The position numbers were made by a program, and so were the translations under genes. From positions 434,355-498,354 of the forward strand of contig OZ252286.1 of the NCBI GenBank assembly GCA_965250045.1: DNA of 64,000 nt, in the 5' to 3' direction. The stretch's first letter is position 1. Each line of letters opens with the position of its first letter. The notes beneath the pieces were generated by a model that saw nothing but the letters and a program-made list of their open reading frames with translations, had not been told where the DNA came from and made no database searches. The DNA comes from Candidatus Marinacidobacterium sp. (GTDB lineage Bacteria; Acidobacteriota; Vicinamibacteria; Marinacidobacterales; Marinacidobacteraceae). Positions 8,765 to 50,601 of the stretch are shown piece by piece.

Positions 8765-8794
8765 GTTGTTCTCCCTGTTCACCCGTAACGACTC

Positions 8795-17042: not shown

Positions 17043-18407
17043 ATGAACGGCGGGACGGCGAACGAGAAAGAACACCAGAGCTCCATCGCCGCATGGCGCG
17101 ACCACATGTTGCGGGCCGGCGAAGTCCCCGGCCCCGAACTGGACGAGTTGGAGCGAGCGCTTTCGGAGGAATTCGGCTCACTCCGGGAAGCGGGGCTCGA
17201 CGACGACGACGAAGCGTTCCTCGTCGCCCTGAAGCGGCTGGGCGAACGGCATGCCCCAACCCGCGAGTTCGCTCTCCCGTACGCCCGGAATCTCCTCGAC
17301 CGGCCCGCGGAGACGGCAGATTCCGGCCGGCGCTCCCGGACCGAACCGATGGTGGTCTTCGGACTCGCCGCGCTCGCCGCCATCGCGATCAGGCTCCCGG
17401 AGCTGTTCGGCTTTCCGCTTGAGGACGGCGGCGGGGTCTATGTGCGGAACCTGAGCCTCTTCGTCTTTCCGTGTCTCGCGGGCTATTTCGGGTGGAAGCG
17501 CCGGCTCGAAGTCCCGAGCGCGATCCGGGTCGGCCTCGCCTTCGTCGCGGCCGCTGTCCTGGTCAACGCCTTTCCGTTTGCCTCGGAAGGAGCGACCGAG
17601 TCGCTCGCCGCGCTGCATCTCCCGATCGCCCTGTGGATGGCCGTCGGGGTGGCCTACGCCGGCGGGCGCTGGAACAGCACCTCGCACCGCTTGAAGTTCG
17701 TGAGATTTTCCGGCGAACTGTTCATCCACTGCGTGCTGATCGGGCTCGGCGGCGTGGTGCTCATCGGGCTGACCATGATCACCTTCCGCGCGATCGGGGT
17801 GGACGCCGAACGGCTTGTGGAGGAGTGGGTGCTTCCCTCGGGAGCCCTGGGGGCGATCGTCGTCTCGGGTTGGCTCGCCGATACGAAAGCGAACGTGGCC
17901 GGGAACATGGCGCCGATGCTGACCCGCATCTTCACCCCGCTCTTCGCTGCGGTCCTGATCACGTTCCTCCTGACGATGGCCTGGGCGGGAACCGGCATCC
18001 GAATGGAGCGTGAGGTGCTCATCGGCTTCGATCTGCTCCTCGTGGTGGTCGTCGGGCTGGTTCTCTACGCAGTGGCGGCGCGGGCACCGGCCGCCCCGCC
18101 CGGCGCCTTCGATGGCCTTCAGCTCGTTCTCGTGATTTCCGCGCTCGCCGCGGACGCGCTGGCGCTCGGAGCGATCGGCGCCCGGATCTCCGAGTTCGGC
18201 TTCACCGCCAACCGGACCGCGGCCCTCGGCGTAAACCTGATCCTGTTCGCCAACCTTGCCGGATCGGCCTGGCTCACCCTCCAGTTTCTCCGGAGGCGCG
18301 GTTCGGGCGCCGCGCTCGAGCGCTGGCAGACCGCCTTCCTGCCGGTGTACGCCGGTTGGGCGGCGGTAGTCGTCGCCCTGTTTCCACCGCTGTTCGGCTA
18401 CCGCTAG
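17043..18407 (+). CDS. polytopic integral membrane protein of unknown function, with a roughly 110-aa soluble N-terminal domain
   Basis: SD GAGGGAG before the ATG. About 10 predicted TM segments. Transcribed divergently from the secreted protein gene. Confidence 0.65.
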   Translation: MNGGTANEKEHQSSIAAWRDHMLRAGEVPGPELDELERALSEEFGSLREAGLDDDDEAFLVALKRLGERHAPTREFALPYARNLLDRPAETADSGRRSRTEPMVVFGLAALAAIAIRLPELFGFPLEDGGGVYVRNLSLFVFPCLAGYFGWKRRLEVPSAIRVGLAFVAAAVLVNAFPFASEGATESLAALHLPIALWMAVGVAYAGGRWNSTSHRLKFVRFSGELFIHCVLIGLGGVVLIGLTMITFRAIGVDAERLVEEWVLPSGALGAIVVSGWLADTKANVAGNMAPMLTRIFTPLFAAVLITFLLTMAWAGTGIRMEREVLIGFDLLLVVVVGLVLYAVAARAPAAPPGAFDGLQLVLVISALAADALALGAIGARISEFGFTANRTAALGVNLILFANLAGSAWLTLQFLRRRGSGAALERWQTAFLPVYAGWAAVVVALFPPLFGYR

Positions 18408-18413
18408 CAGCCG

Positions 18414-19541
18414 GTGGCAGCACGGCCCATGAGAACCTCGTCCCCGGCGCGATCGCCCGGATCATCAATGCGTCCCCCTGACCCGCGCCGCTACCGCGCC
18501 CGGCGCCCGGTCATCGCGGTCGCGGGGTTCGTCTGCGCCCTGCTCCTGGAAAGCAGTCCCGGCTGGGGGTACCGCTTCTACCCTTCGCGCGACGAGGACT
18601 CCGTCGTCCCGCGCAGCGATGCGGCGAGGCGCTGGCAGTCGACCGTCTGGGGACCGGGAGATACCCTGGTCTGGCACTTGCTGGACGATCCGCTGTGGCT
18701 GGCCCATTTCTCGGGACCGGAGGAAGCGCTTCCCCTTGTTGAGGAATCGCTGGACGCGTGGGGGCGAATCCCGAGCACCGACGTGCGCTGGCGAGTTGAC
18801 GGGATCATCGTGGGAGAGCAGGTTCGGGGCGATGGCCGCAACACCGTGTCGGTGGAGGAAACGGAGGACTTCGCCGGGCAGGCACGACGGTGGAGTAGAA
18901 GGCGGCTAGGCGGACCTTGGGAAAGGGTGGAGTGTGATGTCGTGCTCGGTACCGTCTATCTTGAGAAGTTGGCGGGTACCGACGACAATCGCCTCAGCAC
19001 GCTCCTCCACGAGCTCGGGCACTGCCTTGGCCTGGCGCATGCGGCGGTGACCCCGACAGTCCGCTGGAATCGGAGCTGGACCGATTCGTCGGTCTGGCAA
19101 AAGGATCCCCAGATGTCCTATGGCAGGGACATTGACAACACCCTGGCCGAGGACGAGGCGATCGGCGCCTCGCTGTTACGTCCGGTGCGCGGATGGCTGC
19201 GAACCACTGGAAGCATCTCGGGACGGGTTCTGTCCGACAGCGGTCCGGCGGCCTTCGTCTCGGTCCATGTCCTGCGTAACAACGGCGGCAGGGCGCGGCC
19301 CGCCGTTCAGGTGTTCAGCAACGAAACCGGTGAATTCCTCACCGAGGGTCTCGCCCCCGGCGAGTACCTCCTCTGGATCCATCCGATGATCGCCCAGAGC
19401 GCCCATGGTCGCCTTCTCCAACGGGGTGACCCCCTGTCGGACCTGAACGACTCCCTCGAATTGCAGCTGCTCGTCGTGCGCGCCGGGCGGGAAACCCGGG
19501 CGGGCGAGTTGACCCTCTCGCACGGACGGGTCGTCCCGTGA
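18414..19541 (+). CDS. secreted metzincin-type zinc metalloprotease with a C-terminal carboxypeptidase-regulatory-like beta domain
   Basis: HELGHCLGLAH (HExxHxxGxxH). Signal-peptide-like RRPVIAVAGFVCALLL. SISGRVLSDSG is CarbopepD_reg-like. Confidence 0.75.
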   Translation: MAARPMRTSSPARSPGSSMRPPDPRRYRARRPVIAVAGFVCALLLESSPGWGYRFYPSRDEDSVVPRSDAARRWQSTVWGPGDTLVWHLLDDPLWLAHFSGPEEALPLVEESLDAWGRIPSTDVRWRVDGIIVGEQVRGDGRNTVSVEETEDFAGQARRWSRRRLGGPWERVECDVVLGTVYLEKLAGTDDNRLSTLLHELGHCLGLAHAAVTPTVRWNRSWTDSSVWQKDPQMSYGRDIDNTLAEDEAIGASLLRPVRGWLRTTGSISGRVLSDSGPAAFVSVHVLRNNGGRARPAVQVFSNETGEFLTEGLAPGEYLLWIHPMIAQSAHGRLLQRGDPLSDLNDSLELQLLVVRAGRETRAGELTLSHGRVVP

Positions 19542-20445: not shown

Positions 20446-20715
20446 GTGCGGACGACACTGACGATCGAGCCGGATGTCGCGATCGAGATCGACAGACGGC
20501 GACGGGCCTCCGGAAGCTCGCTGAAGCGGGTCATCAATGGCCTGTTGCGGAAGGGGCTGCGGGCCGAGGCGGAAGCTCCGACTCCGTCACCCTATCGGTC
20601 GGAGACTTTCGATCTGCAGTTCCGCCCCGGAATAGATTCACTGAAACTGAACCAGCTCGTGGACGAGCTGGAAGTGGAATCGTTTGTGGAACGGGAAGCA
20701 CCGAATCGTCCGTGA
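20446..20715 (+). CDS. vapB: VapB-family antitoxin
   Basis: GTG start. 89 aa. MRTTLTIEPDVAIEIDRRRRASGSS... Its end overlaps the downstream PIN gene start by 4 bp. Confidence 0.7.
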   Translation: MRTTLTIEPDVAIEIDRRRRASGSSLKRVINGLLRKGLRAEAEAPTPSPYRSETFDLQFRPGIDSLKLNQLVDELEVESFVEREAPNRP

Positions 20716-21143
20716 TCGTTCCGGACGTCAACCTGCTGAGCTACGCGATCAACCGCAACAGCCCGTTCCACGATCAGGCCCGCGAGTGGTGGGACGCTGC
20801 GGTCTCCGCAGGGATCGTCGCGCTGTGTTGGCCGACCGTGGTCGGATTCCTGCGCCTCGCGACGAATCGCCGCGTCCTGGTGGACCCCCTGCCGGTGGAG
20901 AAGGCGACGGGCATCGTGGACACCTGGCTCGCACAGCCCGACGTCCATCTGTTGGTCCCGACTTCCGCGCACTGGGGCATCCTGGCCAGACTGCTGCGAG
21001 CCACCCAGGTCGGCGGGAATCTGGCCACGGACGCCCACCTCGCCGCCTACGCCATCGAGCACGGCCGCACCCTCGCCTCGAACGACGCGGACTTCGGCCG
21101 GTTTCCGGGGCTACGCTGGCGGAATCCGGTCAGGGCTTCCTGA
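20712..21143 (+). CDS. vapC: VapC-type PIN-domain toxin
   Basis: (M)IVPDVNLLSYAI..., ...LATDAHLAAYA..., ...LASNDADF... Confidence 0.85.
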   Translation: MIVPDVNLLSYAINRNSPFHDQAREWWDAAVSAGIVALCWPTVVGFLRLATNRRVLVDPLPVEKATGIVDTWLAQPDVHLLVPTSAHWGILARLLRATQVGGNLATDAHLAAYAIEHGRTLASNDADFGRFPGLRWRNPVRAS

Positions 21144-21313: not shown

Positions 21314-22070
21314 CCGGGTAACCGCTCTCTGCCGCCGGACCGAACGCCGGGGTGCGGCGGCCGGTCAAGACCGCGTTTTCAGGATCGGTGATGCGCGTTT
21401 GCCGTGAAGATGCAGCCCCGCGCGGGAACCCCAACGGTCCAGATGGTGCCGGCCGCAAGGGAACGCCGACCTCCGGCCAGTTGCTGTGAAAATGCAGTCG
21501 TGACCGGGACGCCGACAGTCCAGATGGCGCATGGGCAAGGGAACGCCGACCTCCGGGCAATTCTCCCGGTGGGGCCCGGCACCGCTGCGCGTAGCGCAGC
21601 GAACGGTGTCTTCACTCAGCTGTAGGGATGACGCCGCACGCCGCGGTTCCCGCCGGAAGCAGGACCACCCCCGAACTGGACGGAGGTTCTTCCCTGCCGC
21701 CCGCCTTCGGCGGGCTGTGCCGACCGGAGGTCGGCGTTCCCTTGCCTGCGCGTCGCTCTACATGGTGGCCTGGGTGCCGAGACGTACACCATCTCGGAAC
21801 TGCATTTTCATGCCCGGCGGGGTGGGCAGGCGGAGCCGATCATGGGGGTTCCTAGCTCTGCGGGCGGCGATGCCGGCCGGAGGTCGGCGATCCCTTTCGG
21901 CGTCACACCAACGGGGAACAGAGGCGGCCCTTAACAAGCCTGTGGTGAAACCCAGGCGGCCCAGTTCTCCCGGTGGGTGCTCCTCCCTCACGCGCCTTGT
22001 CAGCCGGACCCCCACCGGGAGAACTGGGCCTCACCGCTCTCGGCGCTCACCCGGGTTCCACCACCGGCTG
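21314..22070. repeat. Roughly 750-bp noncoding composite of family D, family B (about 21670-21855) and family A (21936-22073) repeat elements
   Basis: The family B unit is about 80% identical to 58031-58215. The family A unit has CAAGCCTGTGGTGAAACCC...GGTTCCACCACCGGCTGCTA ends. Confidence 0.7.
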
Positions 22071-22910
22071 CTATCGGATCAGTTCGAAATCCGGGGCCTC
22101 CGGCACCACCCCCGCGCGTTCCGCCATCGAGAAGAGCACCCGAAGGGCCGCTTCTCCGGAATCTCCCATGTCCCGCGTGAGCGCCGAGACGTACATCTTC
22201 ACGAACCGCCGGCCGAGCTCGCGTTCGAGGCCGCGGCCGAACAGGAGGGCGTAGTCGAGCGCCTCGTCCTCGTTCGCGTAGGCCCAGTCGATGCTCGCCC
22301 GCATCGCGCGGTTCACTTCGATCGCCAGATCGCGGCCCAGGTCGCGCCGCACCACGTCGAGCCCGAGCGGCAACGGGAGTCCGTGCTCCTCCTCAAACCG
22401 GACGCCGAAATCCGAGAGCAGGTGGAACCCGCGCGACGCGTAGGTCAACTGTCCCTCGTGGATGACGACCCCCGCTTCGGCGCGGCCCTCTTCCACCGTC
22501 TCGAAAACCTGGTCGAAGGGCACCATGACCGGTTCGAACTCCCCGATGTAGCACCGGGCGAGCAGGGCCGCGGTGGTGCGAGGGCCGGGGATCGCCACCC
22601 GGCGTCCCTGCAGATCCTCAAGGTTTCCGGCCTTCCGGCTTACCACCACCGGGCCGTACCCCTCCCCCATGCTGGCCCCGCTCGCCATGATCCAGTAGCG
22701 GTCCGCCACCGACAGGTAGGCGTGCGCCGAGATCGCGGTGATCGGAAGCTCGCCGGCGAGCGCCCGGTCGTTCAGGCTCTCGATGTCCTCGAGGACGTGT
22801 TCCACCCGGTAGTCGCGGATGCGCACCGCGCCCTTTGCGAGGGCGCAGAACATGAAGGCGTCGTCAGGATCGGGGCTGTGCCCGATGCGCAGGATGGGAG
22901 GAGGGGTCAC
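22071..22910 (-). CDS. MqnA/MqnD-family menaquinone (futalosine pathway) biosynthesis protein
   Basis: LRIGHSPDPDDAFMFCAL signature. GTG start with AAAGGAA SD. The 27 upstream codons are rejected. Confidence 0.75.
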   Translation of the reverse strand: MTPPPILRIGHSPDPDDAFMFCALAKGAVRIRDYRVEHVLEDIESLNDRALAGELPITAISAHAYLSVADRYWIMASGASMGEGYGPVVVSRKAGNLEDLQGRRVAIPGPRTTAALLARCYIGEFEPVMVPFDQVFETVEEGRAEAGVVIHEGQLTYASRGFHLLSDFGVRFEEEHGLPLPLGLDVVRRDLGRDLAIEVNRAMRASIDWAYANEDEALDYALLFGRGLERELGRRFVKMYVSALTRDMGDSGEAALRVLFSMAERAGVVPEAPDFELIR

Positions 22911-27739: not shown

Positions 27740-28675
27740 ATGAGCATGCCGGACGGGCGCGGGAATTCGGGCGTGAGCCCCGACAACCGTCCTGGCCCTC
27801 AGGTCCCCAAGGGCCTGTTCGTTCGCTGCGACGGGTGCTCGGAGATCGTCTACGGGCGGGCGCTTCGCGAGAACCTCGAGGTCTGTCCGCGCTGTGACTT
27901 CCACATGCGGCTCGGGGCGCGCGACCGCCTCGAGATGCTCGTGGACGAGGGTGTGTACCGGGAGATCTCCGGCGGCATCCGATCCAACGATCCACTCCGC
28001 TTCCGGGACCGGGTGGACTACCGCGACCGGCTCCGCAAGGGCGCCGAAATTACCGGCCTGGACGACGCCATTATCGTGGTGCGCGCCGAGATCGAGCGGA
28101 CTCCGGTGGTCCTCGCGGTCATGGAATACGCCTTCATCGGCGGCAGCATGGGCGTCGTGGTCGGCGAAGAGATCACCCGGGCGGTGGAAACCGCGTGCGA
28201 CGCGCGCATTCCGCTGATCGTGGTCTCCTGTTCGGGCGGCGCCCGGATGCAGGAAGGCGCGCTTTCGCTGATGCAGATGGCGAAGATTGCGTCGGCGCTC
28301 GCCGTACTCGACGACGCGGGAGTGCCTTTCGTCTCGTTGCTCACCCATCCCACCACCGGGGGAGTCACGGCCAGTTACGCGATGCTCGGCGATGTGAACC
28401 TCGCCGAGCCGGGAGCCCTGATCGGTTTCGCCGGCCCCCGGGTGATCCAGCAGACGATCCGCGGCGAATTGCCTCCGGGCTTCCAGCGTTCGGAATTCCT
28501 GCTCCGCCACGGGATGCTCGACCGGGTAGTCCACCGCCGTGAGCTTCGCGGCGTGCTGGGCGGCCTCTTGCGATTCATGTACGAGCCCGCCGGAGCGACG
28601 GCTTCAGCGGAGGAGGACGCCGCCGCCCAGGTGCAGACCGCACCCGAGCCGGCGCTCGTCCGCGCCGTCCGGTAG
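27740..28675 (+). CDS. accD: acetyl-CoA carboxylase carboxyltransferase beta subunit
   Basis: Zinc finger CDGCSEIVYGRALRENLEVCPRCDFH. Motifs GGSMGVVVGEEIT, GGARMQEG. Confidence 0.9.
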   Translation: MSMPDGRGNSGVSPDNRPGPQVPKGLFVRCDGCSEIVYGRALRENLEVCPRCDFHMRLGARDRLEMLVDEGVYREISGGIRSNDPLRFRDRVDYRDRLRKGAEITGLDDAIIVVRAEIERTPVVLAVMEYAFIGGSMGVVVGEEITRAVETACDARIPLIVVSCSGGARMQEGALSLMQMAKIASALAVLDDAGVPFVSLLTHPTTGGVTASYAMLGDVNLAEPGALIGFAGPRVIQQTIRGELPPGFQRSEFLLRHGMLDRVVHRRELRGVLGGLLRFMYEPAGATASAEEDAAAQVQTAPEPALVRAVR

Positions 28676-28698
28676 AGCGGGCGCTCGATCCCGCTCCG

Positions 28699-28901
28699 AA
28701 CAGCCGGTGGACAGAGTCGCGTGGCGTTCGGCCGGCGATCCATCCCGGCTGAACCACGCCGCTTCGCGTTGTTCATCGTTCCGCTGCGGTCGAAATACTC
28801 CCGGGCCAGTTCTCCCGGTGGGGGCTCCTCCCTCGCGCGCCTTGTCAGCCGGGCGCCTCACCGGCCTCGGCACTCACGCCACTTTGCCCACCGGCTGTTA
28901 A
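28699..28901. repeat. Family-A MITE-like element (copy with a degenerate left end) between accD and folC
   Basis: GGCGATCCATCCCGGCTGAACCACGCCGCTTCGCG...GGGCCAGTTCTCCCGGTGGGGGCTCCTCCCTCGCGCGCCTTGTCAGCCGG...CACCGGCTGTTA. Confidence 0.7.
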
Positions 28902-28917
28902 AGCCTGGATCGGTACC

Positions 28918-30324
28918 ATGCAATACGAGGACGCGCTCGCGTTCCTGCGGGAACGCGAACAGTTCCACGTCAAGGTCGGAACCCGGAACATCCGGCTGCT
29001 CGCCAAGGCGCTCGGCCACCCCGAACACCGGTTCCCTTCCGTGGTGGTCGCCGGGACGAACGGAAAGGGCTCGACGGTCGCCATTCTGGACTCGATCCTG
29101 CGCGCCCACGGACTCCGGGTGGGGCGTTTCACCTCCCCGCATCTCGTATCCATCAACGAGCGCATCCTGGTGAACGGCCGTCAGCTTCCGAATGAGGAGT
29201 TCGCCGACCTGGTGGGGGCGATCGCCTCGGCGTCGCGCGGCCTGCTGCCGGACCAGCAGCCATCGTTCTTCGAGACGATCACCGGAGCCGCCTTCCTGGT
29301 GTTCGCCCGGCACGGGCTCGACGCCGCGGTCTTCGAGGTGGGCATGGGCGGCCGCTGGGACGCCACCACCGCGACCGACGCCCGGCTCGGCCTGGTGACG
29401 CGCATCGCGCTCGATCACGAGCGCTATCTCGGTCGCACCGTCGCCGAGATCGCCGGCGAAAAAGGGGCGGTGGCCCGTCCCGGGGGAGAACTGCTGATCG
29501 CCGGGCAGGAGCCGGAGGCCGCCGCGGTGCTCCACGAGAGCGCCCGGGCGCGCGGCGCCCGTTCCCGGGATCTGGCCGTCGAGACCGAGACCGACTTCAC
29601 GATCCTCCGTGCCGGAGCGACGGGTCGGCTCGTTACCCCCGAAGCGACGTACGAGGATCTCTGGCTCCCGCTCCCGGGCCGCCACCAACTCGATAATCTG
29701 GCGCTTGCGGTCCGGGGGGCGGAGCGGTTCTTCGCGCGCGAGGACCTGGGAGCGCTCGACCCCGTGCGGGTCCGTCAGGGCGTCTCCGCGGTCCGCTGGC
29801 CGGGCCGGCTCGAATGGTTGCCTCGAGAGGGCGCTCGTCCACGCGTGCTCCTCGACGCCGCCCACAATCCGAGCGGCGCCGAGCGCCTGGCCGACTACCT
29901 GGGTTCCCTCGGCCGGAACGGCCGGCGCGTACTGGTCTTCGGGGCGATGCGCGACAAACGCGTCGAGGGGATGTTGCCCCCCCTCGCGCCGCACTTCGAG
30001 CGGGTGGTGTTGACTGCCGCCGCCAGCCGCCGGGCCCTCTCCGCCGCTGACCTGCGCGCAACCGGCGAAGCGGTGTTTTCCGGGAACGGAACCCGCTGCG
30101 AGGCCGTGGAGCAGGTTCCGGACGCGCTCGCGCGTGCCTTCCGGCTCGCCGGTGAGTCAGGCGAGGTTGTTATCGCCGGATCCATCTACCTGCTCGGGGA
30201 CGCTCTCAAGACGCTGCGATCCGAGGACGGCGACGGCCTCGAAGCGAGCGTGATCGAGATGCCGGCTGTCCCGACGGAGCCGGTCAGGCCGACGGGAACC
30301 GCTCGGCAGACCTCAGCGGCCTGA
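28918..30324 (+). CDS. folC: bifunctional folylpolyglutamate synthase / dihydrofolate synthase
   Basis: P-loop VAGTNGKGST. Mur-ligase family motifs. The accD-folC order is conserved in many bacteria. Confidence 0.9.
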   Translation: MQYEDALAFLREREQFHVKVGTRNIRLLAKALGHPEHRFPSVVVAGTNGKGSTVAILDSILRAHGLRVGRFTSPHLVSINERILVNGRQLPNEEFADLVGAIASASRGLLPDQQPSFFETITGAAFLVFARHGLDAAVFEVGMGGRWDATTATDARLGLVTRIALDHERYLGRTVAEIAGEKGAVARPGGELLIAGQEPEAAAVLHESARARGARSRDLAVETETDFTILRAGATGRLVTPEATYEDLWLPLPGRHQLDNLALAVRGAERFFAREDLGALDPVRVRQGVSAVRWPGRLEWLPREGARPRVLLDAAHNPSGAERLADYLGSLGRNGRRVLVFGAMRDKRVEGMLPPLAPHFERVVLTAAASRRALSAADLRATGEAVFSGNGTRCEAVEQVPDALARAFRLAGESGEVVIAGSIYLLGDALKTLRSEDGDGLEASVIEMPAVPTEPVRPTGTARQTSAA

Positions 30325-30370
30325 CCGCCGTACACTCCCCCGCGCCTGAGCGGCCCCTGTTCTCCAACTG

Positions 30371-32140
30371 ATGCGCCTTTCCCACCATTTCGGCCTCACT
30401 CTCCGTGAAGCGCCGGCCGGCATTGAAGCCGAAAGCCATCGGTTCCTGCTGCGGGCCGGTTTCATCCGGCAACTCGGCCAGGGCCTTTATTCCTACCTGC
30501 CGCTCGCGCACCGGTCCATCACCCGGATCGAAAACATCCTGCGCGAGGAAATGAACCGGATCGGCGGGCAGGAAATGACCATGCCGGTCGTCCACCCGGC
30601 AGAGATCTGGCGCCGGTCGGGTCGCTACGACGCCGTCGGGCCCGAAATGGCGCGGTTCAAGGATCGGAAAAACAGCGACCTCGTCCTCGCCATGACCCAC
30701 GAGGAAGTGGTGGCCGACCTCTGCCGGACCGAAATCCAATCCCACCGGCAGCTTCCGCAGCTCGTCTACCACATCCAGACCAAGTTCCGGGACGACCCCC
30801 GCCCCCGGGCCGGACTCATCCGCGTGCGCGAGTTCACGATGAAGGACTCCTACACCCTCGACCACGATGCCGAGGGTCTGGCTCGGCAGTACCGCGCCCA
30901 CTACGAGGCGTACTTCCGCATCTTCGGCCGGTGCGGACTGCCCACGATCGCCGTCGGCTCGGACGTCGGGATGATGGGTGGCAGCCAAGCGCACGAGTTC
31001 ATGTACCTCACGCCGGTGGGCGAGGACACCCTGGTGCTCTGCGACGCCTGCGGCTACGCCGCCAACCGGCAGATCGCCCGCTTCTCGAAGGCGCCGGCGG
31101 AGCCCGAGGCGCCGCTCCCCCTCGAACGGGTCGCGACACCCGGAGCGCAGACGATCCGCGAGCTGGCGGAGTTCCTCGGGATCCCGGCCGCGCGGACCGC
31201 GAAGGCGGTGTTCCTCACCGCCGGCCTCGACGGTGGCGCCCGCGAGGAACTGGTGGTCGCGATCGTCCGCGGCGACATGGACGTCAACGAGACGAAGCTC
31301 GCGAACGCGGTCGGGGCTTCCTGGCTCCGCCCGGCGGAGGAAGAGGCGATCCGGAGCGCCGGCGCTACCCCGGGATACGCCTCCCCGATCGGGCTCACCT
31401 CGGGCACGGTGGTGGTGGACGATTCGATCCCGGAGTCACCGAACCTGGTGGCGGGCGCGAACGAGCAGGACGTGCACTTCCGGAACGTGAACCCGGGACG
31501 GGACTACGACCCCGGACTGGTCACCGACATCGCGGTGGCGGAGGACGGCCATTCCTGCGTGGAATGCGGAGAGCCGGTCCGCACTTCCCGCGGCGTCGAG
31601 GTGGGCAACATCTTCCAGCTCGGCACCCGCTACGGGGACGCCGCCGGGGCTCGCTTCCTCGACGAATCGGGAGTCGAACGCCCCATCTGGATGGGCTCCT
31701 ACGGGATCGGCTCGGGACGCCTGCTGGCCTGCGTCGCGGAGCAACACCACGACGAAAACGGCCTCTGCTGGCCGATGAGCGTCTCCCCCTACGACGTTCA
31801 CCTCATTCCGCTGGTCGGGCGCTCCGGTGCGGATGACGAGGCGGGAAAGGAGGCGGAACGCCTGCACGACAGCCTTGAAGAAGCGGGTCTCGAAGTGCTG
31901 CTCGACGACCGGGATGAACGCGCGGGGGTGAAGTTCGCCGACGCCGACCTGATCGGGATTCCCCTGCGGGTGGTGATCTCCCGCCGTTCGCTGGACCGGG
32001 GCGGCGTGGAAGTTCGGGTGCGGGGCGAGGAATCCGCGGAAATCGTGCCGCTGGAGCACCTCGCGGAAACCCTCGCGTCCCGCCGGGCCGAACTTCTGGG
32101 CCGCATCGAGGCAGCGGTCCGGATCCCGGAATTCGGCTGA
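30371..32140 (+). CDS. proS: proline--tRNA ligase (bacterial type with editing domain)
   Basis: Class II motifs FRDDPRPRAGLIRVREFTMKDSY and GSYGIGSGRL. INS domain. C-terminal anticodon-binding domain. Confidence 0.95.
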   Translation: MRLSHHFGLTLREAPAGIEAESHRFLLRAGFIRQLGQGLYSYLPLAHRSITRIENILREEMNRIGGQEMTMPVVHPAEIWRRSGRYDAVGPEMARFKDRKNSDLVLAMTHEEVVADLCRTEIQSHRQLPQLVYHIQTKFRDDPRPRAGLIRVREFTMKDSYTLDHDAEGLARQYRAHYEAYFRIFGRCGLPTIAVGSDVGMMGGSQAHEFMYLTPVGEDTLVLCDACGYAANRQIARFSKAPAEPEAPLPLERVATPGAQTIRELAEFLGIPAARTAKAVFLTAGLDGGAREELVVAIVRGDMDVNETKLANAVGASWLRPAEEEAIRSAGATPGYASPIGLTSGTVVVDDSIPESPNLVAGANEQDVHFRNVNPGRDYDPGLVTDIAVAEDGHSCVECGEPVRTSRGVEVGNIFQLGTRYGDAAGARFLDESGVERPIWMGSYGIGSGRLLACVAEQHHDENGLCWPMSVSPYDVHLIPLVGRSGADDEAGKEAERLHDSLEEAGLEVLLDDRDERAGVKFADADLIGIPLRVVISRRSLDRGGVEVRVRGEESAEIVPLEHLAETLASRRAELLGRIEAAVRIPEFG

Positions 32141-32154
32141 CGCGCGGAGGGCAA

Positions 32155-32373
32155 ACAGCCTGTGGCAAAACCCACGCGGCGTTTGCCCGGCGATCCATCC
32201 CGGCTGAACCACTCCGCTTCGCTCCGTTCTGTGTTGCGTTTCGGTCGAAATACACTCGGGCCAGTTCTCCCGGTGGGGGCTCCTCCCTCACGCGTCTTGT
32301 CAGCCGGACCCCCACCGGGAGAACTGGGCCTCACCGGGCTCGGCGCTCACGTGGGTTTCACCACAGGCTGTTA
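32155..32373. repeat. Family-A MITE-like element, the best-preserved copy: about 219 bp with about 25-bp terminal inverted repeats and an internal long palindrome
   Basis: Left AACAGCCTGTGGCAAAACCCACGCGGCG. Right CGCTCACGTGGGTTTCACCACAGGCTGTT. Internal CCAGTTCTCCCGGTGGGGGCTCCTCCC...CCCCCACCGGGAGAACTGG. Confidence 0.8.
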
Positions 32374-32380
32374 GCAGCGA

Positions 32381-33796
32381 GTGCTCCAACCCGTTTCCGT
32401 CCCGCTGATCCTCCTCGCGTTGCTTGCGGCCGGGTGCCTCTACGGACTGATCGTTCGACCTCTCTGGCAGCGGCGCCGCGAGCAGCGGAATACCCACGCT
32501 TTCCACGAGGCGCAGGGCCGGCTGGCCATCCAGCCTTCCGCGTTCCAGCTCCTGAAACCAACGAGCACCGCGGACCTGCTGATGGTGGACCCGCTCGTTC
32601 AGGACGCAATCCTCAAGGAGACCGAGCGGAGCGATACCGACCAGTGCGACGCCCTGGTGCAGGCGCGGGAATACGCCCGGGAGATCGTTCCCTCGCTGAG
32701 CGCCGGCTTCTACTTCCGCCTCATCCACGGACCTCTCAAGCGGTGGATGCTCCAGCTCTTCCGGGTCCGGGTGCGGTACCTGGACGAGGATGCGATCGTG
32801 CGGGCGGCCAGGACCTCAACGCCGGTTTTCGTTCTGAATCACCGCAGCAATCTCGACTACGTGATCGCCGCCACTTCGCTCGCCGACCGGGCCATCCTCT
32901 CGTTCGCGGTGGGCGAATGGGCGCGTTACTGGCCCCTCGAAGGGCTGCTCCGCGCCCTCGGCGGCTTCTTCGTCCGACGAGGATCGGGCAATCCGCTCTA
33001 CCGGGCCGTCCTTGCCGCCCACGTCAAGATCGCAACCCGGGCCGGAGTCCCGCAGGCGTTCTTCATCGAGGGCCGCTTTTCCGTTGACGGGAAGCTGGGC
33101 AGTCCGCGTCTCGGTCTTCTCGACTATGCGGTCCGGGCCTTCGATCCGGAGACGCGGCGCGATGTGGCGTTCATCCCGGTGGCGGTGAACTACGACCGGG
33201 TCATCGAGGACAAGAACCTCCAGATCATGAAGGCCCAGGGGAAACGTGCGACCCGGACCGGATCCTGGCGAGCCTCCGCCGCCTTTCTCGGCCACCAGTT
33301 CTGGCTGCGCCTCAACCGCCGCTGGCGGCCCTTCGGCTACGCCACCCTCAGCGTTGGCAAACCGGTATCGCTCCGGGATTGGCTCGCGAGCCGGGGCTTC
33401 GATCCCCGGAAAGCCGACCGCGAAACGCGGTTCGCCGAGGTAGGCCAACTCGCTGACGAACTCATGCAGCGCATCGCGGACATCATGCCGGTGCTACCGG
33501 TCCCGCTGATGGCAGCGGTCATCCGGGACGGGGGAGAGGAGGGAATCACGCGAGCAGACGCACGCGCCGCTGCTTTCGAAATCCTCGAGACTCTCGCGGC
33601 GCGCCCGGGCGAGCCGGACATCCCTCCCGAGGACTGGGAGCCGGCGGTCGAACTCGGGGTACAGCTCCTGTTGCAGCGCCGGATGGTGAAAGCCGAGCGG
33701 GAAAGGCTCATCATCCTCGAGCCGCGCCGCCACTTCGTGAACTACTACGCGAACTCGATCGGCCACCTGGTGCCGGAGCGATCCGGTCCGTCGTAG
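32381..33796 (+). CDS. PlsB-like glycerol-3-phosphate / lysophospholipid acyltransferase family protein
   Basis: HxxxxD acyltransferase motif VLNHRSNLDY. FIEGRFS. N-terminal TM helix. GTG start immediately after the MITE. Confidence 0.7.
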   Translation: MLQPVSVPLILLALLAAGCLYGLIVRPLWQRRREQRNTHAFHEAQGRLAIQPSAFQLLKPTSTADLLMVDPLVQDAILKETERSDTDQCDALVQAREYAREIVPSLSAGFYFRLIHGPLKRWMLQLFRVRVRYLDEDAIVRAARTSTPVFVLNHRSNLDYVIAATSLADRAILSFAVGEWARYWPLEGLLRALGGFFVRRGSGNPLYRAVLAAHVKIATRAGVPQAFFIEGRFSVDGKLGSPRLGLLDYAVRAFDPETRRDVAFIPVAVNYDRVIEDKNLQIMKAQGKRATRTGSWRASAAFLGHQFWLRLNRRWRPFGYATLSVGKPVSLRDWLASRGFDPRKADRETRFAEVGQLADELMQRIADIMPVLPVPLMAAVIRDGGEEGITRADARAAAFEILETLAARPGEPDIPPEDWEPAVELGVQLLLQRRMVKAERERLIILEPRRHFVNYYANSIGHLVPERSGPS

Positions 33797-33863
33797 GGCT
33801 ACCGAGTCGGAGAAGGCGGTCCGCCGGAAAGGGACCGCCGGTCTCCAGACCGGCATCGCCCGC

Positions 33864-34085
33864 TAGCAGCCTGTGGCGGAACCCGGGTGAGCGCCGAGAC
33901 CGGCCAGTCCTCCCGGTGGGGGCGAGGCACCCGGCTGACAAGGCGCGTGAGGGAGGAGCCCCCACCGGGAGAACTGGCCCTGGTGTATTTCGACCGAAAC
34001 GCAACGATGAGCGGCGCGAAGCGACGCGGTTCAGCCGGGATGGATCGCCGGCCGAACGCCGCCTGGGTTTCACCACAGGCTGCTA
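33864..34085. repeat. Family-A MITE-like element (inverted orientation relative to 32155-32373)
   Basis: TAGCAGCCTGTGGCGGAACCC...GGGTTTCACCACAGGCTGCTA. Internal GTGTATTTCGACCGAAACGCAACGATGAGCGGCGCGAAGCG. Confidence 0.8.
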
Positions 34086-34203
34086 GAGCTAGAGGCGGGC
34101 GAAACACGCACGTCGCTCCTCAACTCATAACACTCCAAGCCGTAAATGCTCCTGCCGTGAGCATTGGCGCTCAGACCATCGTCGTAGCTGTCGCTCGGCG
34201 CGT

Positions 34204-37107: not shown

Positions 37108-37275
37108 CGGCGTTCGTCGGCTGGGGCGAACATGTCGCACCAGCAGGGCCGGCTGGAATCAACATGTCGCAGTAGCGGGCTCTCCCGGCTCGGACATGTC
37201 GCAGTAGCGAAGCCGGCTGGAATCAACATGTCGCAGTAGCGGGCTCTCCCGGCCCGGACATGTCGCAGTAGCGGG
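37108..37275. repeat. Tandem repeat, about 62-bp unit x about 2.7. It carries the 16-mer ACATGTCGCAGTAGCG four times plus a variant ACATGTCGCACCAGCA.
   Basis: Seen directly. Lies in the divergent promoter region between the Dyp peroxidase and the aminopeptidase. The inverse motif GCGCTACTGCGC is at 37077-37088. Confidence 0.85.
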
Positions 37276-37319
37276 GTCGGCTGGCGGAGGCTCCCGGCAT
37301 TGGCGGGGTTGGTGTCTTT

Positions 37320-37500
37320 CTGCAGGGGACGTCATCAGCGCAGGTTTCGCGCTCCCGCGCGTGCCGACCAGAGGTCAGCGTTCCAAGCCGTCCCCGCGCT
37401 TCCTCCCGGTCGGCGGTACGCGGTCTCGCCCCGCTGCGCGGGGCGGTGCCGGTGTGAACGCCCCCACCGGGAGAACTGGCCGGCGTTCCCGGCACGGCGG
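37320..37500. repeat. Family-C plus family-D REP-like unit
   Basis: GGTTTCGCGCTCCCGCGCGTGCCGACCAGAGGTCAGCGTTCCAAGCCGTCCCCGCGCTT ... GGCGGTGCCGGTGTGAACGCCCCCACCGGGAGAACTGGCCGGCGTTCCC. Confidence 0.65.
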
Positions 37501-37598
37501 CGCGATCGGGGTGAGGAACGTGGGCCCGCAGACTCCTTTTGGTCACCAACTCCCCAGAGGTCGGCGGTTCCCTCGCTTCGGTAGAGTCTGCGAACGCC

Positions 37599-39216: not shown

Positions 39217-40041
39217 ATGTTATCCAGCACCGCCACTGGACAGGGGATCACTGCCCGCAATCGGCAGCGGCTCGCCGGGCTGCTCCGGGGGGTCGAGGGG
39301 CCGTTCACGGTCGGGGACGCGTCCGAAGTCCTGGACGCCGACGTGGCCCGCACCCGGCGGTTCCTTGCCTACCTGGCCGCGCGGGGCTGGCTCATCCGGA
39401 TCCGGTCCGGCATCTACGACCGGGCGCCACTCGAAGCCGCCGGTCCCGTCGGTCGGGAGCGAATGTGGGCCAAGGCATACCGGATCTTCGCCCCCTGCTA
39501 CCTCGGGGGCTTCACCGCCGCGTCCTACTGGGGTCTGACGGAACAGTTCTTCCGCAATGTGATGGTGCTCAGCACCCGGTGGACCCGGAATCGCCGACCC
39601 ACAATCCAGGGCGTGCAGTACGAGGTCAAGGTAATCGCCCCGAAGCGGCTGTTCGGCACCCGGTTGGGTTGGGACGAGGATCTGAGGGTCGAGTTCTCGG
39701 ACCCGGCCCGCACCATCGTGGACACCCTGGACGATCCTGCGATTGGCGGCGGCATACGACAAGTGGCAGACACGGTCCAGAACTTCTTTCTGTTCGCGGA
39801 ACTGCGAAACGACGAGCGCCTGCTCGAGTACATCGCGCGGTTCGGCAACCGGTCACTCTACAAGCGGCTCGGCTACCTGATCGAGAAACTGGAGATCGAT
39901 GCGCCCGAGGTGCTGGAGACCTGCGCGCGGCGTATGAGTCAGGGAGTCGTCCGCCTCTATCCTGGCGGTCCCGATATCGGGCGGCCGGTGAAGCGTTGGC
40001 GGCTGATCGTGAACTCCACCATCGCCCCCCACGACTCATGA
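39217..40041 (+). CDS. abiEi: AbiEi-family antitoxin / transcriptional regulator (type IV TA, abortive infection)
   Basis: N-terminal wHTH (FTVGDASEVLDADVARTRRFLAYLAARGWLIRIRSGIY) plus the COG5340-like C-terminal domain. 4-bp overlap with the downstream NTase. Confidence 0.8.
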   Translation: MLSSTATGQGITARNRQRLAGLLRGVEGPFTVGDASEVLDADVARTRRFLAYLAARGWLIRIRSGIYDRAPLEAAGPVGRERMWAKAYRIFAPCYLGGFTAASYWGLTEQFFRNVMVLSTRWTRNRRPTIQGVQYEVKVIAPKRLFGTRLGWDEDLRVEFSDPARTIVDTLDDPAIGGGIRQVADTVQNFFLFAELRNDERLLEYIARFGNRSLYKRLGYLIEKLEIDAPEVLETCARRMSQGVVRLYPGGPDIGRPVKRWRLIVNSTIAPHDS

Positions 40042-40868
40042 TTTCCAGGGCGCGCCTCCGACTCGGCGCGCAGGAGTGGGGTGTCGGGGATGTTGTCGTG
40101 GAGAACGACTATGTCCTCGGCTGGCTGCTGTGGGGAATCGGCTCCGACCCAACGCTCCGGGAGCAGTGGGTGTTCAAGGGCGGGACCTGCCTCAAGAAGT
40201 GCTACATCAGCGACCATCGGTTTTCCCAGGATCTCGACTTCACCGTCCGGAAGGGTGGTCCTGTCGCCCCTGAAGCGGTGCTCCCGATTCTGCGGCTGCT
40301 GCTGCAGCGAGTGAGCGATGCTTCCGGACTCGACTTCGCCGTCGCCGAACCCCGGTTGGACCTCCACCGGGGAAGGAACTTCGCCCGGGGCCGCATCTAC
40401 TACACCGGTCCGCGCCGCGCCCGCATGCCGACCCGGCTGATTCTGGATCTCAGCGGCGAGGAACTCCTCGTCGTGGAGCCGGAATGGAGAACTGTGCTCC
40501 ATGACTACGGAGACAAGCTTCCCCCGCCGGCGACGGTGCTGTGCTACCCGCTGGTCGAAGTATTCGCGGAGAAGATCCGCGCAATGGGAGAGCGGGGACG
40601 CCCGCGGGACCTCTACGACCTCGTCAGCGTGTTCCTCAGACCGGAGGTTCGGCCCGACCCGGCGGAGGTCCGACCGGTGCTGGCGCGGAAGTGCGCGCAC
40701 AAAGGGATTCCGGTTCCGAACCTCGACTCCGTCCGCGCTGCAGAGACGCTGGCCGAACTGAAGTCCGAGTGGAGGCACATGCTGGACCGACAGATGGCCG
40801 TGGTCCCCTCGCTCGACGACACGTGGGGCGAACTCCCGGCCCTCTTCCGCTGGCTTAACAGCCTGTGA
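40038..40868 (+). CDS. abiEii: AbiEii/AbiGii-family nucleotidyltransferase toxin (DUF1814)
   Basis: NDYVLGWLLWGIGSDP...WVFKGGTCLKKCY...RFSQDLDFTV matches the AbiEii NTase core (GG-x-n-DxD). 276 aa. Confidence 0.85.
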   Translation: MISRARLRLGAQEWGVGDVVVENDYVLGWLLWGIGSDPTLREQWVFKGGTCLKKCYISDHRFSQDLDFTVRKGGPVAPEAVLPILRLLLQRVSDASGLDFAVAEPRLDLHRGRNFARGRIYYTGPRRARMPTRLILDLSGEELLVVEPEWRTVLHDYGDKLPPPATVLCYPLVEVFAEKIRAMGERGRPRDLYDLVSVFLRPEVRPDPAEVRPVLARKCAHKGIPVPNLDSVRAAETLAELKSEWRHMLDRQMAVVPSLDDTWGELPALFRWLNSL

Positions 40869-41130
40869 TGAAACCCACGCGGCCCAGTTCTCCCGGTGGG
40901 GGCTCGGCCGGCGATCCATCCCGGCCAAACAGCCGGTGGCGGAGCCCACGCGGCGTTCGGCCGGCGATCCATCCCGGCTGGACCGCGTCGCTGCGCGCCG
41001 CTCATCGTTGCGTTTCGGTCGGAATACACTCGGTATTCCTCCCTCACGCGCCTTGCCAGCCGGGCGCCTCGCCCCCACCGGGAGGACTGGCCGGCCTCGG
41101 CGCTCACGCGGGTTCCACCACAGGCTGTTG
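40856..41130. repeat. Family-A MITE-like element (composite copy with nested partial duplications)
   Basis: TAACAGCCTGTGATGAAACCCACGCGGCCCAGTTCTCCCGGTGGGGGC...GGTTCCACCACAGGCTGTTG. Contains two GGCGATCCATCCCGGC modules. Confidence 0.75.
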
Positions 41131-41521
41131 AGCCGGAGAAGTGTTGACACCCGCCCGGCAGCGGCGCCGGGCTGGCGAAGGGGGCCGCTCCGACCTCAGC
41201 CGGCCGGGTCCGCCCAATCCGCAGCGATAGAGATCGGGTGTCCCGCATGCAGACGGCGGAGGCAGTCGGTCGCCGGCAGGCAAAGTGCGCCGGCGATCAG
41301 TAAACGGCGCGTTCCCCGATAGTCGGCCCACGCGCAAAGGTGCTCGGCCACCAGTCCTTCCAAGGCGGCGCCCTCAATCTCGCTGAGACGGTCAAGCGCA
41401 CCGGCCGGACGTGACGGCATTTCAGCATCTGTTCCGCCACTTTGACGATCAAGATGGCATGCCGAATGCCGAAATACCCTTCTCACGCCTCATTGGCGCG
41501 AGAACCGAGGTCCTCCGCGCG

Positions 41522-46449: not shown

Positions 46450-47192
46450 TCGAGGCCTCCGGTCTCAGGAAGACCTTCGGCAGCGTCGTGGCCGTGGAGG
46501 ACGTGAGCTTTCGCGCCGAAGACGGGCAGATCACCGGGCTCCTCGGTCCCAATGGGGCCGGGAAGTCCACCACCCTGCGGATGCTCTACGGCCTGATGGC
46601 GCCGGAGGCGGGCGACGTCACGGTGGATGGGGTGCACGTCCAACGGGAAACAATGGCCGCGCAGGAGCGAATCGGAGCCCTTCCGGACTCGCACTCCCTC
46701 TACCCGCGGCTGACCGGCCGCGAGAACATCCGCTACTTCGCACAGCTTCGCCGTATTCCGCGAGACGAAGCCGAGGCCCGGATCGCGGAGTTCGTCCGGC
46801 TGCTGGAGATGGACGACTTCGTGGATCGGCGGGCAAAGGGCTATTCCCACGGAGAACGCTCGCGGGTGCTGCTCGCCCGGGCGCTGGTCCACGAGCCCCG
46901 GAACATTCTCCTCGACGAGCCGACAAACGGGCTGGACGTGATGAGCACCCGGCGCATGCGGGACCTGATCCGCGAGCTTCGGGCGCGGGGCTGCGCGGTG
47001 CTCTTTTCGAGCCACATCATGCAGGAGGTGTCCCTCCTCTGCGACCGGATCGTGCTCATCGCTGCCGGCCGGGTGGTCGCCGCAGGGTCCCCCGACGCGA
47101 TCCGCCACACGGCAGGCTGTGAGGACCTCGAAGACGCCTTCGTCAGCCTCACCGGCCTCGGCGCTCACCCGGGTTCCACCACAGGCTGCTAG
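46446..47192 (+). CDS. ABC transporter ATP-binding protein
   Basis: Walker A GPNGAGKST, signature YSHGERSRV, Walker B ILLDEPT. The last 15 codons (SLTGLGAHPGSTTGC-stop) are encoded by a family-A repeat fragment. Confidence 0.9.
   Translation: MIEASGLRKTFGSVVAVEDVSFRAEDGQITGLLGPNGAGKSTTLRMLYGLMAPEAGDVTVDGVHVQRETMAAQERIGALPDSHSLYPRLTGRENIRYFAQLRRIPRDEAEARIAEFVRLLEMDDFVDRRAKGYSHGERSRVLLARALVHEPRNILLDEPTNGLDVMSTRRMRDLIRELRARGCAVLFSSHIMQEVSLLCDRIVLIAAGRVVAAGSPDAIRHTAGCEDLEDAFVSLTGLGAHPGSTTGC
47147..47191. repeat. Family-A right-end fragment (CTCACCGGCCTCGGCGCTCACCCGGGTTCCACCACAGGCTGCTAG) fused to the ABC ATPase 3' end
   Basis: Identical to the ends of the copies at 21936-22073 and 32155-32373. 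Supplies the TAG stop. The GTG start of the next gene follows 1 nt later. Confidence 0.8.
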
Positions 47193-48355
47193 TGCGAAGC
47201 GCGGCCACCGTCTTCCGGAAGGAGCTCCTCGACGGGATCCGCGACCGGCGGGCCTTCATCGCGGTCCTGGTTTCGATCAGCATCTTCCCGATCATGATGC
47301 TGCTCATCGGCCGCTTCGGCGAGGGAATCCGCGACGAGGTCCGGAACATGGAGGTACCGGTGGAAGGACGGGAAAACGCTCCCGCGCTCGTCGAATGGCT
47401 CGAACGACAGCCGGGTCTGGAACTGACCCCGGCCCCCGAGGACCCCGAGTCCGCGGTGCAGGACCGGGAGGTGGATCTGGTGCTGCGGATCCCGGCGGAC
47501 TACGAGGAGCGGTTCGCCGAGGGGCGGCCGGCGGAGTTGGAATTGATCGCCGACAGCTCCCGGGCGGCGGCGGGGGCGAAGGCGCGCCGCATCACGGGGC
47601 TTCTCGAGGGCTACGGGAACGAGGTCGCCGCCCTGCGCCTCATCAGCCGGGGGGTGAGCCCGCTACTCATCCGCCCCCTTTCCGTCGAGCGCGCGGAAGT
47701 CTTCAGTTCCCGGCGGCGGACGGCCTTTTCCGTTCTCGGCTTCATCCCCATGTTCCTGCTGATGAACGCCTTCTTCGGCGGCATGCAGATCGCCTCCGAC
47801 GCCATTGCCGGCGAACGCGAGCGGGGGTCCATCGAGGCGCTGTTGCTGAACGCGGTTCCGGCGCGTTTCCTGATTCTGGGGAAGTGGGCGGCGGCGGCGA
47901 CCTTCGCCGTTTTCCTGACGCTGCTCGGGATCGGAACCTGTGTGCTGGTGCTCCGGTTCATGCCCGGAGCGCTGAACATTTCCCCGACCGTCGGCGACTG
48001 GGTCGTCGTGGGATTGGCCGCCCTTCCGCTCGCGCTCTTCTGCTCGGCGCTCCAGGTGGTGGTCTCGACCTACGCGAAGTCCTACAAGGAGGCGCAGACC
48101 TATTTCGGCTACGTGGCCTTCCTCCCGATGATCCCCTTCTTCGCGGTCACCTTCAATTTGGTGGAGGAGGGGACCTGGACGGCCTTCATCCCGATTCTCG
48201 GCCAGCACCTGATGATCCTGAACGTAATGGCCGGCGAAACGCTCGCGGTCTGGGAACTGGCGCTGGCCGGATTCATCGCCCTCGCCGCCGCCTGGGCGCT
48301 CCTGCGGTTCGCCTCAGCCCTCTTCGTTCGCGAGAGCGTCGTCTTCGTGCGCTGA
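47192..48355 (+). CDS. ABC-2 type transporter permease
   Basis: GTG start. 6 TM helices. ABC-2 family pattern, with a large periplasmic loop between TM1 and TM2. Confidence 0.8.
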   Translation: MRSAATVFRKELLDGIRDRRAFIAVLVSISIFPIMMLLIGRFGEGIRDEVRNMEVPVEGRENAPALVEWLERQPGLELTPAPEDPESAVQDREVDLVLRIPADYEERFAEGRPAELELIADSSRAAAGAKARRITGLLEGYGNEVAALRLISRGVSPLLIRPLSVERAEVFSSRRRTAFSVLGFIPMFLLMNAFFGGMQIASDAIAGERERGSIEALLLNAVPARFLILGKWAAAATFAVFLTLLGIGTCVLVLRFMPGALNISPTVGDWVVVGLAALPLALFCSALQVVVSTYAKSYKEAQTYFGYVAFLPMIPFFAVTFNLVEEGTWTAFIPILGQHLMILNVMAGETLAVWELALAGFIALAAAWALLRFASALFVRESVVFVR

Positions 48356-50349: not shown

Positions 50350-50601
50350 ATGTCGCAGGAAGTTGTCTATCGAGGCGTCGCCAAGGTCTTTTGGAATGGT
50401 CGCAGCCAGGCGGTTCGGCTGCCCGCGCCGTGTCGTTTCGACGCGCGGGAGGTAGAAGTCGTGAAGCGCGGGCGGGAAGTCATTCTGCGGCCCCGCGGAA
50501 AGGACTGGGACGCCTTCTTCGACTCGATCACACCCGGATCGTGGCCCGCGCGCGAACAGCCGCCACTCGACGACGTACCCGACTTTGACGTTCTTCCTTG
50601 A
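50350..50601 (+). CDS. vapB: AbrB/MazE-fold VapB-type antitoxin
   Basis: MSQEVVYRGVAKVFWNGRSQAVRLP is a SpoVT/AbrB swapped-hairpin N-terminus. Overlaps the downstream PIN gene. Confidence 0.75.
   Translation: MSQEVVYRGVAKVFWNGRSQAVRLPAPCRFDAREVEVVKRGREVILRPRGKDWDAFFDSITPGSWPAREQPPLDDVPDFDVLP

Follow-up and report, generated by a model that had tools for sequence, protein, structure and literature searches.

The repeat that separates proS from a plsB-like gene belongs to family A, a previously undescribed family of high-copy, small, non-coding mobile elements that are MITE-like and form TA-flanked hairpins; we found no description of these repeats in the literature. We favour, with some reserve, the reading that family A is a non-autonomous foldback MITE of marine Vicinamibacteria, most probably mobilised in trans by a TA-specific DDE transposase. 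Copies measure 174-278 bp, below the limit of roughly 300 bp that applies to MITEs, and like MITEs they are non-coding and multi-copy, have inverted-repeat ends in common and vary in their presence between genomes. An autonomous element with the same ends, a further generic hallmark, did not turn up in the DNA searched, and the mode of insertion, into TA of the CTAG type, is that of IS630/Tc1-mariner-type elements. Family A is ordinary in kind; what is unusual is the conservation of its hairpin and of its old copies.

Copies, modules and hosts

An earlier note had listed eight places in the window (the whole stretch of 64,000 nucleotides analysed here, 68% G+C) as copies or fragments of one repeat family. 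Searching the window by nhmmer with an HMM built from six long copies, we recover all of them as family members (8/8) and, beyond them, nothing else of note. Of the members in the window, six are full copies; the others are a short form, an extra left-half unit and a fragment of the right end (Table 1). Some boundaries had to be redrawn: the member given as 60440-60600 in fact runs from 60430 to 60617, that given as 40856-41130 is not a single unit but the left-half unit at 40855-40929 followed by a full copy at 40926-41131, and the one at 21936-22073, a member all the same, is not full, since modules A and B are missing from it. The sequence motifs held up well. The end motif CAGCCTGTGGYRAAACCC matches the window 11 times (0.00 expected from shuffles), the three internal modules quoted in the note are conserved across the aligned copies, and the terminal inverted repeats are kept among copies.

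Table 1. Family-A features in the window, with the parts of the focal copy, and IS630-family elements in related loci (approximate positions marked ~)
Sequence	Feature	Position	Strand	Length (bp)	Structure and surroundings
Window	Short form	21932-22074	+		Left end, arm hairpin, right end; no modules A and B
Window	Full copy	28698-28902	+	205	Single arm; GGTGGACAGAGTC end subtype; flanked by accD (stop 28675) and folC (ATG 28918), 17 nt before folC
Window	Focal full copy	32152-32374	+	223	Two arms; between proS stop (32140) and plsB-like GTG (32381), 15 nt past proS and 7 nt short of the GTG
Window	Focal copy, left flank	32152-32155			CAAA (degenerate)
Window	Focal copy, left end	32156-32173
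Window	Focal copy, module A	~32190-32210			GGCGATCCATCCCGGCTGAAC
Window	Focal copy, module B	up to ~32254
Window	Focal copy, forward arm	32261-32280
Window	Focal copy, loop	32281-32308
Window	Focal copy, reverse arm	32309-32327
Window	Focal copy, right end	32353-32370
Window	Focal copy, right flank	32371-32374			TTAG
Window	Full copy	33863-34086	-	224	Two arms; CTAG on both flanks; convergent spacer past the plsB-like gene
Window	Extra left-half unit	40855-40929	+	75	Left end, arm, module-A-like end
Window	Full copy	40926-41131	+	206	Directly behind the extra left-half unit
Window	Right-end fragment	47142-47193	+		Fused to an ABC-transporter ATPase ORF at its 3' end
Window	Basic copy	48997-49184	-	188	No arms; trmB (48314-48997, minus strand) has its ATG directly next to the CTAG (48998-49001)
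Window	Basic copy	60430-60617	-	188	Ends of a divergent subtype; a beta-lactamase-family gene (58980-60416, minus strand) starts 13 nt downstream
L059	IS630-family IS	1867-3037
L051	IS630-family IS	4537-5690
L099 and L100	IS630-family IS	around 1440-2590

The core of the element is 186 bp long, with termini YTAR-CAGCC…GGCTG-YTAR. On the strand that we call F it reads CAGCCTGTGG(T/C)(G/A)AAACCC, then GGCGATCCATCCCGGCTGAAC, through to GGGTTYCACCACAGGCTG; strand S is the complement. The ends had been described as terminal inverted repeats of about 25 bp, and inverted repeats they are, but of greater length: conserved pairing extends about 58 nt inward from either end, in the form of two helices (1 and 2) of 27 and 20 pairs. 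The long internal palindrome noted earlier exists in the focal copy but is not general, being an optional pair of 18-bp arms that is absent from the copies at 48997-49184 and 60430-60617. Copy lengths accordingly form a ladder (about 186, 205, 223, 241, 259 and 276 bp) whose step is the optional arm, CCAGTTCTCCCGGTGGGG or its complement, which occurs at several fixed sites and mostly in complementary pairs. Alternatively, a copy can be parsed into two halves, the left one 53 or 71 bp and the right one about 142 bp long, either of which can be repeated in tandem. An array in locus L037 consists of 6.8 left halves, the same unit as window 40855-40929, and then 2 right halves, and a region represented by two copies with 99.8% identity has a different number of left halves in each. 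Module A ends in a sequence (GATCCATCCCGGCTG) similar to the right terminus, and what had looked like a nested insertion into module A we reinterpret as tandem half-units. Family-A termini also bound other cores, as well as a 51-bp element made of ends only; family A thus belongs to a superfamily. A conserved ORF was not found among the copies. One candidate, a mini-ORF on the complementary strand (MSGAKRRG…), was rejected, as its length is variable (commonly 16, 19, 40, 45 or 46 aa) and its stop lies off the junction.

Parts of the element also occur on their own. Tandem arrays of the arm alone (CCCCACCGGGAGAACTGG, at least 4 copies) lie in L041 (4282-4360) and L066 (about 3750-3830), and the 18-bp arm acts as a small satellite in its own right. 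Combined with a hairpin module, TTCAGACCGGCACCGC…, the arm is found in the window at 628-716, 15480-15625, 21534-21603, 37354-37511 and 63162-63195; these repeats are further families with modules common to family A. The window contains other repeats, too. There are tandem repeats at 13421-13564 (an 18-bp unit, GCCCGGAGGCCGCCTGCC, in about 7 copies) and at 37127-37286 (a 32-bp unit with ACATGTCGCAGTAGCG, about 5 copies), and a 271-nt direct duplicate at 92% identity (54045-54315 and 58367-58637) beside AAA-ATPase-like genes. A dispersed family (…CTCACGTTGGCAGGGCG…GGTTTCGCGCTCCCGCGCG) occupies 5067-5164, 63374-63471 and 37330-37366 and recurs in at least 15 related loci. Three DUF4013 paralogues stand in tandem at 7206-9646, and toxin-antitoxin-type genes at 1890-2234, 20712-21143, 40038-40868 and 50585-50986 encode NTP_transf_2, two PIN and AbiEii domains.

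Family A is not restricted to the window. Related loci, to which the L-numbers refer, are at least 95 stretches of DNA that match one exact 23-mer from module A. Among the loci listed (95 loci, 759 kb, seven MAGs) nhmmer gives 333 matches, and the matches listed include 153 distinct full copies. Hosts among these matches are Acidobacteriota MAGs in every case: CAXXLQ01 and OY821641 (Vicinamibacteria), OZ244986 and CBDHFO01 (Candidatus Marinacidobacterium, a genus of the class Vicinamibacteria), MPMW01 and VXWI01 (labelled 'Acidobacteria') and JAKZVK01 (labelled 'Bryobacterales'). MPMW01 is bin61 from the sponge Aplysina aerophoba (PMC5649159), and the host clade is marine and apparently sponge-associated, with at least one sponge-derived MAG. 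The window itself comes from a separate genome, syntenic to L039, L029 and L023 at about 88% identity. Viral contigs and plasmids gave no family-A match, and Rfam gave no match at gathering score in the window, only look-alikes of miRNA hairpins below threshold (E of 0.015 or more).

Insertion sites and candidate transposases

Across 122 copies, the left flank has Y at position -4 in 118, T at -3 in 77, A at -2 in 117 and R at -1 in all 122, and the right flank mirrors this pattern. The inner bases covary as element ends, A with T and G with C, and 18 informative flank pairs favour TA plus an element-borne R/Y, against 5 that favour a 4-bp direct repeat; a YTAR duplication of the IS5 type was rejected as the less consistent of the two. 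Where copies abut, they have one TTAA in common. Most copies show TA within YTAR on both sides, and one site without the element carries a single CTAG. As read from sequence, the flanks would fit duplication of the TA and insertion into its centre without duplication alike.

Comparison between related genomes yields orthologous sites in both the filled and the empty state. L066 reads GAGG-CTAG-GAACC (empty) where L061 reads GAGG-TTAG-element-CCAG-GAGCC (filled), and L035 reads CCCTA-CCGCTG where L089 reads CCCTA-ACAGCC, between flanks that are 98% identical. Several other empty sites are blurred by divergence and do not reduce cleanly. The copy at 33863-34086 is missing from the orthologous spacer of L039, and L023 has a full copy at the site orthologous to the short form at 21932-22074. 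At the site orthologous to 60430-60617, likewise just before the start of the orthologous gene, L029 carries a different element with related ends (1944-2144, CAXXLQ01), which points to replacement or to two independent insertions into the same target.

With genes called by a simple codon-bias caller that was checked against Pfam in the window, 150 of 156 full copies are intergenic. The earlier note placed copies immediately before starts or after stops, rightly so: where a strict end faces a gene from its 3' side (157 ends), the stop codon lies exactly at the junction in 41 cases (TAA 20, TAG 19), and any other stop-to-end distance within 12 nt is represented by 3 ends at most. This count rests on a strict 18-mer end; a loose 9-mer pattern, which gives 57 junction stops, was set aside because many of its matches are due to chance. 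Whichever way the element lies, its terminal purine completes TA to a stop, which makes stop codons harmless places to insert. Elements have also supplied the ends of reading frames. The fragment at 47142-47193 is the source of the last 11 codons of the ATPase and of its TAG stop (47190-47192), which overlaps the GTG of an ABC-2 permease gene, and the AbiEii ORF (40038-40868) extends 10 nt into the left-half unit at 40855-40929 and has its TGA stop within the end variant GTGATG. Solo end-like sequences stand exactly at the stop codon of gene 17043-18407 (CTAG-CAGCCGGTGGCAGC, window 18404-18425) and at the stop of a peptidase gene on the minus strand (49403-50200; TTAA-CAGCCGGTGGCGGAGG, window 49378-49406).

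Under the explanation that we prefer, a copy is a unit of 186 bp without coding capacity (RCAGCC…GGCTGY) between TA flanks that lie within YTAR (CTAG, TTAA, TTAG or CTAA), and its two halves form an imperfect inverted repeat, so that either strand can fold into a rod-like hairpin. The element would enter TA sites, which are rare in these genomes of 68% G+C and are often part of a TAA or TAG stop, the element's terminal purine then rebuilding the stop. The mover, acting in trans, would most probably be a DDE transposase with TA specificity, of the IS630/Tc1-mariner type. Within inserted copies, ordinary recombination and slippage would lead to gain and loss of 18-bp arms, left halves of 53/71 bp and right halves of 142 bp could be amplified in tandem, and copies would probably be carried on adjacent transcripts. 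Duplication of the TA (as against insertion into its middle), the identity of the enzyme and an effect at the RNA level are parts of this account that we infer.

Several observations sit less comfortably with it, the first of which concerns the enzyme. The earlier note saw no transposase associated with the repeats, and for matching ends this holds: the sole transposase of the window is an IS110-family gene (5420-6691), and its ends are unrelated. In 823 kb of DNA we find no transposase between family-A ends, and a metagenome scan for a family-A end followed after 15-45 nt by an MP[RK]GR start returned one chance match only. The element-flanked gene at 1925-3037 of L059 does encode an IS630-family transposase (370 aa, DDE_3 and HTH domains; thousands of relatives, named 'IS630 family transposase' by NCBI). 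However, the IS to which it belongs, found in L059, L051 and L096-L100 (Table 1), ends in TA-GTGTGGYGTCCCGCAAATA, whereas family A ends in RCAGCCTGTGGTGAAACCC; with only TGTGGTG in common, at an offset of 5 nt, it was rejected as the parent. Two copies of this IS are 99.6% identical. It inserts in CTAG, and in four independent cases (L051, L059, L099, L100) the CTAG lies at a family-A terminus. These data show that a TA/CTAG-specific transposase is active in these genomes.

The IS110-family element of the window spans 5160-7163 and carries DEDD_Tnp_IS110 and Transposase_20 domains. Its left flank belongs to another repeat family, paired hairpin repeats (GTGGGAAGGGTGGGAAGGGCG … CGCGCTTTCCACGCTTTCCACA, 6750-6990) fill its 3' non-coding part, and directly behind its right end (CTTGCATTCTCATGGAGAGT, 7144-7163) stands CCACCGGGAGAACTGGCC, the 18-bp arm motif of family A. 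The arm may be the target of this element. A relative in L062/L090 has the same ending and a family-A copy between transposase stop and right end. A link between family A and the IS110-family element was nonetheless rejected, as the ends are unrelated and family A has merely inserted in a relative.

The hairpin, the old copies and the alternative readings

A second difficulty for cut-and-paste by a DDE transposase lies in the fold of the element. The consensus of 43-44 basic copies folds to -107 kcal/mol on the S strand as against -52 kcal/mol on the F strand. The S structure has 64 pairs, with 97.8% of cells paired and 19 pairs that have changed on both sides; none of 500 shuffles reaches these values, and slid controls are 29-41% paired. 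Summed over 153 copies, the S-strand cells comprise 8422 Watson-Crick, 989 G·U and 60 A·C pairs. Among pair-states present in at least three copies, G·U exceeds A·C by 37 to 6 (p=1.6e-6), as against 11 to 14 among pair-states seen once (p=0.69). Deamination of the S strand was rejected as the cause of the G·U excess, since unpaired columns lack an excess of C>T or A>G. Given that the excess is confined to propagated variants and that there is no deamination bias, the filter would act on lineages that yield further copies rather than on copies that have landed. A single-stranded S form at the copying step would explain such a filter, and cut-and-paste of double strands, which does not predict one-strand pairing of variants in three or more copies, would not.

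It is here that a different mode of propagation has to be considered, in which the hairpin of one strand is copied in single-stranded form by a domesticated HUH enzyme (RAYT or IS200/IS605-type) and copies persist vertically, as with REPINs. We regard this as unlikely, though it is the strongest competitor. The whole-element hairpin with its compensatory changes, the large difference between the strands, the propagated G·U variants without deamination bias, the conservation of old orthologous copies described below and the tandem clusters all speak for it, and REPINs likewise have hairpins with compensatory changes and ordered clusters (PMC3116915). The anatomy speaks against it: the TA/YTAR flanks resemble a target duplication, the ends are long inverted repeats instead of REP palindromes of 20-40 nt, a GTAG-type motif is absent, and at 186-276 bp the element exceeds the GI REPIN, in which two conserved 16-mers start 71 bp apart (PMC3116915). 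Nor does a search of about 0.8 Mb with Pfam reveal a RAYT (Y1 HUH) or other HUH gene among the 20 genes that have elements on both sides; the one transposase among them is the IS630-family enzyme of L059.

The third observation that the preferred explanation does not predict is the persistence of old copies. Both the accD-folC copy and the focal proS-plsB copy are common to the window and OZ244986 (L039). The former is 92% identical to its L039 orthologue, with locus-specific variants in common, and the latter is 95-96% identical and differs by two clean 18-bp arms; in the four genes that flank them, identity at 4-fold degenerate sites is 67-81%, a contrast measured on two orthologous pairs. 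Homogenisation by gene conversion was rejected as the cause, because locus-specific non-consensus variants have been retained. Taken over these two pairs, the conservation of old copies exceeds what a purely selfish, decaying element would show.

Might the elements then be kept by the host? On this reading a copy is a structured RNA or DNA module (an RNase III or other processing site, a transcript insulator or a protein-binding site) that is under host selection, and its spread is secondary; we give it slightly less credence than single-strand copying. Besides the identity of the two old copies and their locus-specific variants, it draws on internal motifs that are nearly invariant outside the stems and on a bias in orientation. 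Between co-directional genes, F is the sense strand in 61 copies and S in 29 (p=0.001), a preference that is also present at stop codons (25:12) and within 40 nt upstream of start codons (28:9). In F-sense copies, rare pair-states are more often G·U when read on the sense strand (14 against 4), as would be expected from weak selection on the mRNA or from mutation linked to transcription; one may speculate that operons are harmed by the very stable rod of S-sense copies or by its GGGAGGA motif. Against host function, however, stands the fact that the better-folding S strand is usually antisense to the adjacent genes. Private mutations, moreover, show no strand-specific protection, many copies are present in one and absent from another of genomes that are about 95% identical, and the old orthologous pairs number just two. 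Signatures of promoters or terminators are lacking in the copies scanned, as is an Rfam match in the window. The earlier note had seen the copies as positioned to act as terminators, promoters or mRNA stabilisers. The first two roles are not borne out by the three copies scanned in window 28600-34200: the region has 0 sigma-70-like promoter sites, no T-run terminator lies in or at the copies, and the 2 terminator-like sites of that region (shuffle mean 3.3) both lie outside elements. A role in stabilising mRNA would have to contend with a hairpin that, though real, folds better on the strand that is mostly antisense to adjacent genes.

That family A is not mobile at all, having spread only through recombination or gene conversion or being an artefact of assembly, is highly improbable: arms and half-units do change locally, with clean 18-bp indels between orthologues and unit numbers that differ between copies with 99.8% identical flanks, but the idea is contradicted by copies that recur at hundreds of unrelated sites with exactly the same YTAR junctions, by their occurrence in seven independent assemblies, megabase contigs among them, and by filled and empty orthologous sites between genomes.

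Known relatives in kind and wider significance

Correia/NEMIS elements of Neisseria and ERIC elements of enterobacteria are TA-flanked foldback MITEs in intergenic DNA. Family A has no sequence relation to them, resides in a different host phylum and, unlike them, has no detected IHF-site or promoter motifs. BIMEs of E. coli and MIRU-VNTRs of mycobacteria are mosaic intergenic repeats in which a few modules form variable tandem arrays between the genes of operons. The array L7R2 and the difference in unit number between near-identical family-A copies recall them, but sequences and hosts are unrelated, and family A has transposon-like ends and flanks and lacks coupling ORFs. Of the known elements, those nearest in mechanism are RUP with IS630-Spn1 and Correia/NEMIS, and those nearest in hairpin evolution and persistence are REPINs.

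For RUP, mobilisation in trans by an IS630-family transposase has been proposed (PMC2229807). Like family A, RUP elements are small, non-coding, intergenic MITEs with inverted-repeat ends and TA insertion that tend to adjoin or lie within IS elements, and the parallel extends to the IS630-family IS found here, which uses the same CTAG targets as family A. In contrast to RUP, whose ends resemble those of IS630-Spn1, family A has ends unlike those of the IS found; it is also larger (186-276 vs 107 bp), modular, folded into a hairpin almost from end to end and subject to strand-specific G·U conservation. Correia/NEMIS elements are transcribed with adjacent genes, and their RNA hairpins have been proposed as substrates of RNase III (PMC2229807). 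REPINs and family A both consist of two inverted halves that form a hairpin with compensatory changes, and both occur in hundreds of intergenic copies and in ordered tandem clusters (PMC3116915); later REPIN papers report long vertical persistence. Family A differs from REPINs in its TA/YTAR flanks, its long inverted repeats starting from RCAGCC and its larger size, and from REPIN-RAYT systems in that no RAYT was found near it among the 20 element-flanked genes.

At the density of the window, about 8 copies in 64 kb, extrapolation to a genome of 4 Mb gives some 500 copies, or about 2-3% of its length, from this one family. Several other families have ends or the arm module in common with it, and elements of this sort shape nearly all short intergenic spacers of this uncultured, marine and at least partly sponge-derived clade of Acidobacteria. 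Copies break short-read assemblies, as at the end of contig L089, which falls within a copy, and they confuse the calling of gene ends where they supply stops or C-terminal tails (47142-47193 and 40859-40868). The presence or absence of copies and the number of their units offer markers for strains.

With its contrasting propagated and private variants and its conserved old copies, family A is a clean test case for the question whether a bacterial MITE is propagated or selected through a strand-specific hairpin. Alongside the TA-specific, trans-mobilised MITE that we prefer, we see a small chance that family A is instead a vertically persistent REPIN-like replicator or a domesticated module, copied or selected through the ssDNA or RNA hairpin of one strand, with TA and stop codons as its sites and selection keeping its old copies between essential genes; if true, this would make it the first system of its kind in Acidobacteriota.
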